Assembly: GCF_056712565.1 (NCBI RefSeq)
Contig: NZ_CM160072.1
Direction: 5' to 3' (one strand)
Length of the DNA: 64,000 bases
Shown here: positions 9,001 to 12,000 of the stretch, one piece after another
How the letters are laid out: each line of letters begins with the position of its first letter
Numbering within the stretch: the first letter of the stretch is position 1
Position numbers: made by a program

Positions 9001-12000
9001 ATTTGCCGTGGTGGCTGGTCTGCCGGGGGGCGATTCATAAGTTCCGCTGTGTGCCGCATCTCACCGGGCGGCGCTTTGAGCACGGGGTGACGGACTGTTA
9101 CACGCTGTTCCGGGACGCTTACCATCTGGCGGGGATTGAGATGCCGGACTTTCATCGTGAGGATGACTGGTGGCGTAACGGCCAGAATCTCTATCTTGAT
9201 AATCTGGAGGCCACAGGGCTGTATCAGGTGCCGTTGTCAGCGGCGCAGCCGGGCGATGTGCTGCTGTGCTGCTTTGGTTCATCGGTGCCGAATCATGCCG
9301 CTATTTACTGTGGTGACGGCGAGCTGCTGCACCATATTCCTGAACAACTGAGTAAACGAGAGAGGTATACCGACAAATGGCAGCGACGCACACACTCCCT
9401 CTGGCGTCACCGGGCATGGCGCGCATCTGCCTTTACGGGGATTTACAACGATTTGGCCGCCGCATCGACCTTCGTGTGAAAACGGGGGCTGAAGCCATCC
9501 GCGCACTGGCCACACAGCTCCCGGTGTTTCGTCAGAAACTGAGCGACGGCTGGTATCAGGTACGGATTGCCGGGCGGGACGTCAGCACGTCCGGGTTAAC
9601 GGCGCAGTTACATGAGACTCTGCCTGATGGCGCTGTGATTCATATTGTTCCCAGAGTCGCCGGGGCCAAGTCAGGTGGCGTATTCCAGATTGTCCTGGGG
9701 GCTGCCGCCATTGCCGGATCATTCTTTACCGCCGGAGCCACCCTTGCAGCATGGGGGGCAGCCATTGGGGCCGGTGGTATGACCGGCATCCTGTTTTCTC
9801 TCGGTGCCAGTATGGTGCTCGGTGGTGTGGCGCAGATGCTGGCACCGAAAGCCAGAACTCCCCGTACACAGACAACGGATAACGGCAAACAGAACACCTA
9901 TTTCTCCTCACTGGATAACATGGTTGCCCAGGGCAATGTTCTGCCGGTTCTGTACGGTGAAATGCGCGTGGGGTCACGCGTGGTTTCTCAGGAGATCAGC
10001 ACGGCAGACGAAGGGGATGGTGGTCAGGTTGTGGTGATTGGTCGCTGATGCAAAATGTTTTATGTGAAACCGCCTCCGGGCGGTTTTATCGTTTATGGAG
10101 CATGAGGAATGGGTAAAGGCAGCAGTAAGGGGCATACCCCGCGCGAAGCGAAGGACAACCTGAAATCATCCCAGATGCTGAGCGTGATAGACGCCATCAG
10201 CGAAGGGCCGGTTGAAGGTCCGGTGGATGGATTAAAAAGCGTGCTGCTGAACAGTACGCCGGTGCTGGACAGTGAGGGGAATACCAATATATTCGGCGTC
10301 ACGGTGGTGTTCCGGGCCGGTGAGCAGGAGCAGACTCCGCCGGAGGGATTTGAATCCTCCGGCTCCGAGACGGTGCTCGGTACGGAAGTGAAATATGACA
10401 CGCCGATCACCCGGACCATCACGTCGGCAAACATTGACCGTCTGCGTTTTACTTTCGGCGTGCAGGCACTGGTGGAAACCACCTCAAAGGGGGACAGGAA
10501 TCCATCGGAAGTCCGCCTGCTGGTTCAGATTCAACGTAACGGTGGCTGGGTGACGGAAAAAGACATCACCATTAAGGGCAAAACCACCTCGCAGTATCTG
10601 GCCTCGGTGGTGGTGGATAACCTGCCGCCGCGCCCGTTTAATATCCGGATGCGCAGGATGACGCCGGACAGCACCACAGACCAGTTGCAGAACAAAACGC
10701 TCTGGTCGTCATACACCGAAATCATCGATGTGAAACAGTGCTACCCGAACACGGCACTGGTCGGCGTACAGGTGGACTCGGAGCAGTTCGGCAGCCAGCA
10801 GGTGAGCCGTAATTATCATCTTCGCGGGCGCATTCTGCAGGTGCCGTCGAACTATAACCCGCAGACGCGGCAATACAGCGGTATCTGGGACGGAACGTTT
10901 AAGCCAGCATACAGCAACAACATGGCCTGGTGTCTGTGGGATATGCTGACCCATCCGCGCTACGGCATGGGGAAACGTCTTGGTGCGGCAGATGTGGATA
11001 AATGGGCGCTGTATGTCATCGGCCAGAATTGCGACCAGTCAGTGCCGGACGGCTTTGGCGGCACGGAGCCGCGCATCACCTGTAATGCGTACCTGACCAC
11101 ACAGCGCAAGGCGTGGGATGTGCTCAGTGATTTCTGCTCGGCGATGCGCTGTATGCCGGTATGGAACGGGCAGACGCTGACGTTCGTGCAGGACCGACCG
11201 TCGGATAAGGTGTGGACCTATAACCGCAGTAATGTGGTGATGCCGGATGATGGTGCGCCGTTCCGCTACAGCTTCAGCGCCCTGAAAGACCGCCATAATG
11301 CTGTTGAGGTGAACTGGATTGACCCGGATAACGGCTGGGAGACGGCGACAGAGCTTGTGGAGGACACGCAGGCCATTGCCCGTTACGGTCGTAACGTCAC
11401 GAAGATGGATGCCTTTGGCTGTACCAGCCGGGGGCAGGCACACCGCGCCGGGCTGTGGCTGATTAAAACGGAACTGCTGGAGACGCAGACCGTGGATTTC
11501 AGCGTCGGCGCAGAAGGGCTTCGCCATGTACCGGGTGATGTTATTGAAATCTGCGATGATGACTATGCGGGGATCAGCATTGGCGGGCGCGTGCTGGCGG
11601 TGAACAGCCAGACCCGGACGCTGACGCTCGACCGTGAAATCACGCTGCCATCCTCCGGTACCACGCTGATAAGCCTGGTTGACGGTCAGGGTAATCCGGT
11701 CAGCGTGGAGGTCCAGTCCGTCACCGACGGCGTGAAGGTGAAAGTGAGCCGTGTTCCTGACGGCGTTGCAGAATACAGCGTGTGGGGGCTGAAGCTGCCG
11801 ACGCTGCGCCAGCGCCTGTTCCGCTGCGTGAGTATCCGTGAGAACGATGACGGCACGTATGCCATCACCGCCGTGCAGCATGTACCGGAGAAAGAAGCCA
11901 TCGTGGATAACGGGGCGCACTTTGACGGTGACCAGAGCGGCACGGTGAATGGTGTCACGCCGCCAGCAGTGCAGCACCTGACCGCCGAAGTCACTGCAGA

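Follow-up and report, generated by a model that had tools for sequence, protein, structure and literature searches.

A terminator-type RNA hairpin between tail genes I and J of a lambda-like prophage

What might an RNA hairpin do in the middle of a phage tail operon? In the 64,000-nucleotide stretch of DNA analysed here (the window), the I-J spacer is the sole gap of more than 10 nt within the H-M-L-K-I-J tail-tip block. A sequence-only reading had noticed in it a hairpin followed by a T-run, accgcc-tccg-ggcggt, at 10067-10088 (AAACCGCCTCCGGGCGGTTTTA), had placed it immediately before the ribosome binding site (RBS) of J, and had suggested an attenuator or an RNA processing site within the tail operon. 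The hairpin was located correctly and in fact extends over 10064-10089, and its position just ahead of the J RBS was right.

The hairpin and its setting

The 6-nt arms ACCGCC (10069-10074) and GGCGGT (10079-10084) enclose the TCCG loop (10075-10078), with TTTATCGTTT (10085-10094) directly 3' of the second arm. Beyond this core, A10067-A10069 pair with U10084-U10086 and three further outer pairs follow (G10066.U10087, U10065-A10088 and G10064.U10089), giving a helix of five G-C, four A-U and two G.U pairs on a 4-nt loop. The 16-nt core folded alone gave -11.4 kcal/mol. None of 200 shuffles was as stable as the complete fold (z = -5.0), which takes 5th place by strength among the 15,974 sliding 27-nt folds of window positions 1-16000; it is not a chance fold. 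The hairpin is also strand-specific: plus-strand RNA forms 11 bp at -17.0 kcal/mol and minus-strand RNA 8 bp at -12.0 kcal/mol, and the G.U pairs exist only in plus-strand RNA. A REP/BIME-like repeated element was rejected, as the pattern AACCGCCNNNNGGCGGTT, with up to two mismatches, occurs only once in the 64-kb window.

The hairpin begins 15 nt past the gene I stop codon (TGA, 10046-10048) on the coding strand, and J is bracketed by it and by a second, canonical terminator (Table 1). The records of phages 21 and 434 annotate the J Shine-Dalgarno (SD) site as a ribosome binding site, and the first 200 residues of J are 100% identical to those of phage 21 J. Among 39 natural variants of the spacer, the GAGG abutting the J ATG is variable. 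The MFE fold of the spacer has 20 bp and pairs AUGUUUUAU with AUGGAGCAU, SD included (z = -2.6); this sole competing fold lengthens the hairpin and does not replace it. Gene I is given a later start, equivalent to 9476, in the RefSeq/PGAP annotation of E. coli Nissle 1917, in which the identical region is annotated.

Table 1. Features at and around the I-J junction (positions in the window)
Feature	Position	Strand	Detail
Tail tip assembly gene I, 223 codons from the lambda-type start	9377-10048	+	Pfam Lambda_tail_I, E = 1e-28
I-J intercistronic spacer, 60 nt	10049-10108	+	ORF list
Predicted longer structure; a lower helix of 10055-10063 and 10095-10103 would pair the J SD	10055-10103	+	MFE fold; not supported as maintained
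Full RNA hairpin GUGAAACCGCC-UCCG-GGCGGUUUUAU	10064-10089	+	11 bp including 2 G.U pairs, -17.0 kcal/mol
GC core CCGCC / GGCGG on a C(UCCG)G tetraloop, UNCG type	10070-10083	+	Loop 10075-10078
U-rich tail UUUUAUCGUUU	10084-10094	+	Tail score nT = 3.8 (post-J terminator, 5.1)
J Shine-Dalgarno GGAG, next to the U-rich tail and 8 nt ahead of the ATG	10097-10100	+	Invariant in 38/39 variants
Central tail fibre / host specificity gene J, 1160 aa	10109-13591	+	ATG at 10109
Strong canonical terminator after J, GGCGCCAGAAATGGCGCC + TTTTTT	13611-13634	+	d = 48.6

Terminator strength was scored with a d'Aubenton-Carafa-style scan using modern energy parameters, in which the I-J hairpin reached d = 19.3, a value that is not comparable in absolute terms to those of the original method. 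Only six sites on both strands of 16 kb scored positive; the I-J hairpin came second, far below the terminator after J, the best in the 16 kb, and was absent from the positive sites of the minus strand. Its tail contains 8 U among the 11 bases 3' of the GC stem, arranged as four contiguous U and then an interruption (UUUUAUCG), and the first three U are able to pair with the upstream A-tract at 10067-10069. With only four contiguous U, the hairpin is predicted to be a terminator of moderate rather than high strength. A consensus terminator scan did not list it, which we attribute to maximal stem extension using up the first U residues: the tail then left has 4 T in the 8-nt window, and that scan requires 5. 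Other gaps of the late operon hold strong hairpins with poor T-tails, namely D-E (714-744, d = -21) and E-FI (1805-1823, d = +6).

Conservation of the stem and hairpins of other lineages

Two levels of divergence were compared. Loci found with the J N-terminus were 98-100% relatives only, so the resulting set of 39 distinct lambda-type spacer variants covers microvariation; deep diversity was taken from tblastn of annotated phages, in which roughly 1,500 phage records had J homologs. Across the 39 variants the helix was paired in 100% of cells, with no pair ever lost: nine of the 11 pairs are invariant, including the whole GC core (39/39), and the remaining two change on one side only and still pair. 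The loop varies between UCCG, UGCG and UCAG, and two variants carry a one-base insertion in it; since UCAG is not of the UNCG type, tetraloop identity is not strictly required. Of the 22 helix columns 2 vary, compared with 21 of the 37 columns elsewhere in the spacer (Fisher p = 2.8e-4). No variant of the lambda-type set changes both sides of a pair, which leaves no covariation proper, and the argument for selection rests on stem invariance against variable flanks and on the non-homologous stems of distant lineages. On this comparative footing, the pairing is shown to be held by purifying selection while loop and flanks drift. Conservation thus backs the view of the site as a hairpin with a terminator-type T-run inside the tail operon, albeit with a short T-run. 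Of 5426 complete E. coli genomes, 4280 match the junction at ≥80% identity. A DNA palindrome serving as a protein operator was disfavoured: with loop length and sequence varying and the G.U pairs confined to plus-strand RNA, an RNA hairpin fits better.

Every sampled I-J spacer of at least 40 nt (12/12, from lambda-, HK97-, N15-, T1- and Stx-type phages and from Aeromonas and Pseudomonas phages) contains a positive-scoring hairpin with a T-run, built on a different stem sequence, and sampled lineages that have no I-J spacer have no hairpin. The stems include CAGGCACCC-UCCG-GGGUGCCUG in Stx-type spacers, GCCACC-UUCG-GGUGGC with U6 in mEpX1, GCCACC-loop-GGUGGC with U7 in phiKO2 and Aeromonas AsXd-1, CCCCGC-UUCG-GCGGGG in Pseudomonas U7, and CCCGC-CUUGC-GCGGG with U6-8 in T1-like Shfl1 and Klebsiella K50; the lowest score belongs to mEp213, which has a UUCG loop (d = 6.2). 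In the more distant lineages a canonical U6-U8 run always lies 3' of the hairpin, and where equivalent hairpins differ in sequence the N-terminal 200 residues of J are about 29-35% identical. The SD directly follows the U-run in lambda-, HK97-, N15- and Pseudomonas-type spacers, with the common motif UUU(A/C)UGG(A/G), and the lineages have anything from 7 to 106 nt between hairpin and ATG. T1-like phages have a strong version of the hairpin, followed by the promoter-like TGTATAATG, so that J there seems to start a separate unit; T1-like genomes are not known to carry a lambda-type Q system.

Several relatives have a gene at this place. In L029 and L020, an insert of 31-42% GC with a lipoprotein ORF lies between the I stop and the hairpin and ends at the hairpin; Stx phages have a small ORF ahead of the analogous hairpin, and phi80 has morF at the I-J junction. 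Morons, which comprise a promoter, a gene and a terminator, are insertions into the late operons of phages (Cumby et al. 2012, PMC3594210). Unlike the hairpin at which the L029/L020 lipoprotein gene ends, that of the window is not part of a moron: the 60-nt spacer holds no extra gene of deviant GC with its own promoter and terminator, and neither a moron nor a recognisable promoter was found upstream of the hairpin inside the window's tail genes.

Termination weighed against other roles

We consider the I-J element to be, probably, a Rho-independent terminator-type RNA hairpin of the plus strand that Q-modified polymerase reads through and that acts on unmodified polymerase. Intrinsic terminators have a GC-rich stem of about 5-14 bp with a short loop and lie between genes, past a stop codon, oriented with transcription, and the hairpin has such a stem and such a position. 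They also carry a U-tract of about 7-9 nt; the tail here has four contiguous U and then an interruption, and the site scored positive in one scan and went unlisted in the other. The layout runs from a short A-tract through a GC stem with an extra-stable C(UNCG)G tetraloop to a U-rich tail leading into the J RBS.

Lambdoid late transcription is performed by Q-modified, terminator-resistant polymerase, Q conferring the resistance by narrowing the RNA exit channel (reviewed in PMC12360218). The window includes neither the Q gene nor pR', and read-through here is inferred from the lambda family. During lytic growth the pR' late transcript would probably pass through the hairpin, J would be co-transcribed with I, and the hairpin would act only on unmodified polymerase. 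In the lysogen, stray or moron-driven rightward transcription would be stopped before the J RBS, the hairpin serving as an insulator or ready-made moron terminator; after transcription, it may shield the tail message upstream of it from 3' exonucleases. Because the late polymerase is Q-modified, lytic read-through is expected even for a competent terminator, and read-through without 3' ends would not be decisive against one, since such polymerase resists terminators. Leaky terminators are common inside phage operons (PMC9163698). No experiments on 3' ends, termination or stability at this hairpin came up in the literature searched.

A broader proposal, which we regard as decidedly improbable, is that the hairpin is an ancient, maintained boundary element of the siphophage tail-tip module that insulates the host-range gene J from non-antiterminated transcription in lysogens and serves as a docking point for morons. 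Position rather than stem sequence may be what the sampled lambda-, HK97-, N15-, T1-, Stx-type, Aeromonas and Pseudomonas phages have in common, and docked morons (lipoprotein, small ORF, small-RNA cassettes) may borrow the terminator. As a variant, the hairpin-U-run-SD layout, or a 22-codon ORF bridging the junction (10048-10116), may set J translation. That ORF was rejected as a leader peptide: its peptide is unconserved, frameshifts are tolerated and one variant has no ATG.

A purely post-transcriptional role would account equally well for the selection on the stem. The hairpin might affect only mRNA stability or segmental decay, without useful termination, blocking 3'-to-5' exonucleases after endonucleolytic cleavage at the U-rich/RBS region, so as to shield the V-to-I tail message upstream or to fix which decay intermediates form. 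The purifying selection on the stem and the extra-stable UNCG tetraloop suit this role, as do the weakness of the U-tract for a terminator and the D-E and E-FI hairpins, whose poor T-tails suggest a general use of hairpins untied to termination. We nevertheless hold it to be unlikely: the canonical U6-U8 run kept by distant lineages would be needless for a pure exonuclease barrier, and the L029-type hairpin stands where a moron terminator is expected. Least probable of all is a neutral leftover, either a scar left by the loss of a moron or a palindrome that arose by chance and does nothing today. Relatives use the junction as a moron slot (L029 lipoprotein gene, Stx small ORF, phi80 morF) and the window has no moron, which would fit a scar; but the invariance of the stem amid variable flanks, the prevalence of the junction in E. 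coli and the recurrence of equivalent hairpins where J itself has diverged so far already disfavour this reading.

The remaining alternatives take in the two suggestions of the sequence-only reading, and neither of these was supported by the analyses made here. A true attenuator would end a fixed or regulated share of late transcripts here despite Q, so that J would have less mRNA than the tail genes ahead of it. In lambda, translation initiation reportedly sets the ratios of late gene expression, which counts against such a role. The intra-operon position and moderate predicted strength of the hairpin would suit an attenuator, other phages tune expression with leaky terminators inside operons (PMC9163698), and the strong T1-like version is followed by what seems a separate J unit; yet Q-loaded polymerase is terminator-resistant (PMC12360218), and the virion contains gpI, gpL and gpJ each as a trimer (PMC10721106), so that no drop in dosage is needed between I and J. 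We found no antiterminator or other alternative structure, no leader peptide logic and no sensor; an Rfam search of window positions 8000-12000 and four related loci returned nothing near the gathering score (best match 17 bits against 40, E = 2), so that no known RNA family fits. A regulated attenuator or riboswitch found no support, and attenuation in any form appears very unlikely. Slightly less probable still is translational control or RNA processing, in which the extended 10055-10103 fold would hide the J SD or form an RNase III site, or the hairpin and U-run would act as an insulator or standby site from which ribosomes start on J independently of I. The inclusion of the SD in the spacer MFE fold and the SD directly following the U-run in several lineages, with its common motif, point this way. 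Against it, the lower helix is broken at three pairs in 6-9 of the 39 variants with no compensatory change, and the hairpin-to-ATG distance is not fixed. SD sequestration was rejected on the broken lower helix; an RNase III site, which requires a maintained, quasi-continuous duplex of about 20 bp or more, was rejected as well, the conserved helix having 11 bp and the 9-bp lower helix being broken.

Precedents and practical meaning

The hairpins at the I-J junctions of lambda (15466-15485), 21 and 434 are orthologs of the prophage element. The whole 60-nt spacer of phage 21 is identical, and a 'terminator' is annotated there (OL657228, 15649-15673); the 434 spacer differs at two positions and is likewise annotated 'terminator' (OL657226, 15466-15485); that of lambda differs at five, and the lambda RefSeq record has no feature at the hairpin. 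The differences from the lambda and 434 spacers, none of which breaks a pair, include the loop (UCCG here, UGCG there) and the stem base (U-A here, U.G there). The 'terminator' features of phages 21 and 434 look like predictions, as neither the records nor the searched papers gave experimental support for them. A putative terminator has also been annotated at the same place, between the I and J homologs, of the linear-plasmid prophage phiKO2 (AY374448, 15298-15320). Independent annotators have thus marked the site in phages 21, 434 and phiKO2, and by this sequence record the I-J hairpin is a real but ordinary element, already known as a predicted terminator and not new.

Its interest lies in its setting. 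The only sizeable tail-tip gap of a very common E. coli prophage family, whose I-J junction occurs in about four-fifths of the complete E. coli genomes, is occupied by a terminator-type hairpin kept by selection, at the place where relatives gained extra cargo genes. The 'terminator' feature of phages 21, 434 and phiKO2 is worth transferring to lambda-like prophages, and for phage engineering, payloads to be expressed from a lysogen could be placed in the I-J gap directly ahead of the hairpin, a natural insertion point that is tolerated. The practical value is modest and no new mechanism is opened.

The phiKO2, HK97-like and Aeromonas spacers resemble that of the window in their order of 6-bp GC stem, 4-nt loop, U-run, UGG(A/G) and ATG, with the common motif UUUAUGG; they differ in the stem (GCCACC/GGUGGC), in a longer, uninterrupted U6-U7 and in a stronger prediction (d = 29-34 against 19). 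C(UUCG)G and other UNCG tetraloops occur in intercistronic hairpins of phage mRNAs and in intrinsic terminators. The C-G-closed UCCG and UGCG loops of the lambda-type spacers, the UUCG loops of mEpX1, mEp213 and Pseudomonas U7 and the UCCG loop of Stx phages belong to this generic structural class, which is not a homologous family.

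The I–J spacer hairpin and its setting

Virion genes of a lambda-like prophage, arranged as its late operon, fill the first 16 kb of the window. Across I–J the prophage shares 99.8% identity with phages ev017 and PhiR63_2 and ~95% with lambda, and residues 1–200 of J are identical in phage 21. When 5426 complete E. coli genomes were searched with a 301-nt probe spanning the junction, 4280 contained a match, nearly all at ≥ 90% identity and with a median of two copies. The prophage lies at the icd site and carries metal-uptake cargo; E. coli Nissle 1917 has an icd-site prophage with the same overall arrangement, followed by sitABCD. 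A side tail-fibre-like ORF downstream of J, 688 codons long, combines a Prophage tail fibre N-terminal domain with a lectin-like C-terminus (in Nissle 1917, PGAP annotates it as a pseudogene plus a second gene), and after it the minus strand encodes the sitDCBA iron/manganese transporter and then an icd fragment.

Coordinates of features in the window and, where a locus is named, in related loci (own coordinates)
Feature	Coordinates	Strand	Basis or detail
H	5145–7706		ORF list
M	7703–8032		ORF list
L	8032–8730		ORF list; Pfam
K	8736–9479		ORF list; Pfam
I	9377–10048		ORF list; Pfam
J	10109–13591		ORF list; Pfam
D–E hairpin	714–744	+	−17.8 kcal/mol; d = −21
E–FI hairpin	1805–1823	+	−14.8 kcal/mol; d = +6
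Hairpin within H	7478–7504		
Hairpins within J	11411–11437; 10338–10364; 10607–10633		
I–J hairpin	10064–10089	+	d = 19.3
Post-J terminator	13611–13628	+	d = 48.6
Predicted lower helix	10055–10063 with 10095–10103		
22-codon ORF	10048–10116	+	
J SD, GGAG	10097–10100		
GAGG	10104–10107		abuts J ATG
Side tail-fibre-like ORF	13644–15710		
sitDCBA, icd fragment	16078–19832	−	
L029 insert	1024–1476		also in L020
Stx-type spacers	L003 478–717; L097 661–900; L004 483–824		L003, Stx2a phage WGPS6
T1-like hairpin regions	L089 791–867; L096 790–867		Shigella phage Shfl1; Klebsiella phage K50

The sequence-only reading had placed a hairpin with a T-run at 10067–10088 and proposed an attenuator or RNA processing site. 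Its structural observation was right, the sequence being exactly as described, and the hairpin is longer: GUGAAACCGCC-UCCG-GGCGGUUUUAU, 11 pairs, −17.0 kcal/mol, with a fold z of −5.0 against dinucleotide shuffles. It begins 15 nt past the I stop codon within the 60-nt spacer and is followed by UUUUAUCGUUU, the Shine–Dalgarno (SD) sequence of J and its ATG. The structure is strand-specific: minus-strand RNA forms only 8 pairs (−12 kcal/mol), because G.U pairs turn into C-A mismatches, and has no positive terminator score.

Among 15,974 sliding 27-nt folds on the plus strand of 1–16000, the hairpin ranked fifth, and four of the eight top-ranked folds lie in the few intergenic gaps (D–E, E–FI, I–J and post-J). 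A terminator score, d, in which length-normalised hairpin energy is combined with a weighted T-tail (with modern energy parameters, so that absolute values are not those of the original d'Aubenton-Carafa method), was positive at only five plus-strand sites and one minus-strand site in the 16 kb, the I–J hairpin being second only to the canonical post-J terminator. By fold rank, scarcity of positive sites and score, it is not a chance structure. A GC stem capped by a UNCG tetraloop, with an A-tract upstream and a U-rich tail downstream, gives it the anatomy of a moderate intrinsic terminator. A simple consensus terminator scan did not list the site, probably because the stem extends through A-tract/U-run pairs and leaves too few tail T residues; the U-tract is short, and the omission is a fair warning. 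The hairpin is also ordinary. Independent annotators have already placed a 'terminator' feature here in phages 21 (sequence identical to the window), 434 and phiKO2; neither the lambda RefSeq record nor PGAP has a feature there.

The D–E and E–FI hairpins, which flank the major capsid gene, are strong with poor or displaced T-runs, and look like stability or processing hairpins rather than terminators. Four hairpins within H and J match or exceed the I–J hairpin in strength (−16 to −19.6 kcal/mol), and all four lack a T-run.

Conservation of the helix

Eighty close relatives together with lambda, 434 and 21 yielded 39 distinct versions of an 86-nt region. The upper helix was paired in 100% of cells, with 9 of its 11 pairs invariant; the other two showed one-sided changes that kept pairing (U-A to U.G, A-U to G.U). 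Variable columns numbered 2 of 22 in the helix versus 21 of 37 in the rest of the spacer (Fisher p = 2.8e-4). No double-sided compensatory changes occurred in this shallow set, so the evidence for the helix is invariance, not covariation. The loop varied in sequence (UCCG, UGCG, UCAG) and in length (a one-base insertion in two variants). Such variation is easier to reconcile with an RNA hairpin than with a DNA palindrome that binds protein. We conclude that the hairpin is real and selectively maintained.

The minimum free energy (MFE) fold of the spacer adds a lower helix that would sequester the SD and yield a ~20-bp duplex. It was rejected as a maintained structure, three of its pairs being broken in 6–9 of the 39 variants.

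Across the variants, the GAGG beside the start codon is polymorphic (GAGG, GACG, GAGA, TAGG), whereas the GGAG 8 nt upstream of the ATG is nearly invariant; the latter is therefore the functional J SD. A 22-codon ORF overlaps the I stop with its ATG (TGATG), spans the hairpin and ends with TAA 5 nt into J. It stays open and stops ≤ 6 nt from the start codon of J in 34 of 39 variants, yet its amino-acid sequence is not maintained across the set, which tolerates frameshifts and includes one variant with no ATG; the ORF is therefore probably fortuitous.

Genes inserted at the junction and the proposed role

Two relatives, L029 and L020, lose homology to the window immediately downstream of the I stop codon and regain it at the hairpin. 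Between lies an AT-rich insert (31–42% GC) encoding a 112-residue predicted lipoprotein (MNKTILFCTIIALTGC..., lipoprotein signal LTGC) with no Pfam match, possibly acting in superinfection exclusion. The insert stops ~25 nt before GCCGCC-UUU-GGGCGGC plus UUUGUUGUUU, and is a classic moron candidate ending at the hairpin. Stx-type spacers are 240–340 nt long; directly after I, a CCCGCAG...CUGCGGG hairpin preceded by A7–8 has the form of a canonical minus-strand terminator, and is followed by a 39-codon plus-strand ORF (MKINVMELFF..., truncated in 569R3) and a plus-strand terminator-like hairpin. These elements had no Rfam or Pfam match; the arrangement points to either a mini-moron or a small RNA or transcript running leftward. 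Morons are promoter–gene–terminator units in late operons (PMC3594210), a definition matched by the gene-then-hairpin order in these relatives; there the I–J hairpin stands where a terminator for prophage-expressed genes would.

The role proposed here is an inference drawn from the structure, its conservation and what is known of the phage family; the searchable literature yielded no experimental data on 3' ends, termination or stability at the site. The lambdoid late operon is transcribed by polymerase loaded with the antiterminator Q, which narrows the RNA exit channel and renders polymerase resistant to pausing and termination (PMC12360218). Q-loaded polymerase would therefore read through the site during lytic growth (Q itself is encoded beyond the window), and the site would act only on unmodified polymerase. 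In the lysogen, the hairpin would serve as an insulator and as a terminator shared with morons; it may also be a barrier to 3' exonucleases.

Alternatively, the hairpin could set gene dosage by attenuation, as other phages use leaky internal terminators (PMC9163698); this is unlikely, given that the virion contains gpI, gpL and gpJ each as a trimer (PMC10721106). A riboswitch, an antiterminator fold and a conserved leader peptide were sought at the junction in Rfam, the MFE fold and the variant comparison, and none was found. The attenuator or processing-site proposal finds only partial support. Lytic read-through would not discriminate between the readings, because it is expected under Q.

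Recurrence in distant phages

With the N-terminus of J as tblastn query, a search of annotated phages gave 1,542 records, from which 21 lineages were inspected. All 12 I–J spacers of ≥ 40 nt contained a positive-scoring hairpin with a T-run, differing in stem sequence.

I–J hairpins in distant lineages
Lineage	Hairpin	Tail
Stx types	CAGGCACCC-UCCG-GGGUGCCUG	UUGUUUU
HK97-like mEpX1	GCCACC-UUCG-GGUGGC	U6
mEp213 (lowest score, d = 6.2)	GUGC-UUCG-GCAC	U7
N15-like phiKO2, Aeromonas AsXd-1	GCCACC-loop-GGUGGC	U7
Pseudomonas U7	CCCCGC-UUCG-GCGGGG	UUUCUUGUUU
T1-like Shfl1, Klebsiella K50	CCCGC-CUUGC-GCGGG	U6–8

No hairpin was present in 7 of the 21 (Salmonella 29485, Mannheimia, Halomonas, Stenotrophomonas, Vibrio Pel, Rhizobium and Synechococcus), where the gap is ≤ 10 nt or the genes overlap. 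Phi80, with a gene (morF) at the junction, falls outside both groups, and Serratia Scapp was left out of both, its annotated J start looking too far downstream for the spacer to be judged. In the T1-like lytic phages Shfl1 and K50, an extended −10-like promoter motif, TGTATAATG or CGTATAATG, lies ~10 nt or less past the hairpin, and J may therefore begin its own transcription unit there.
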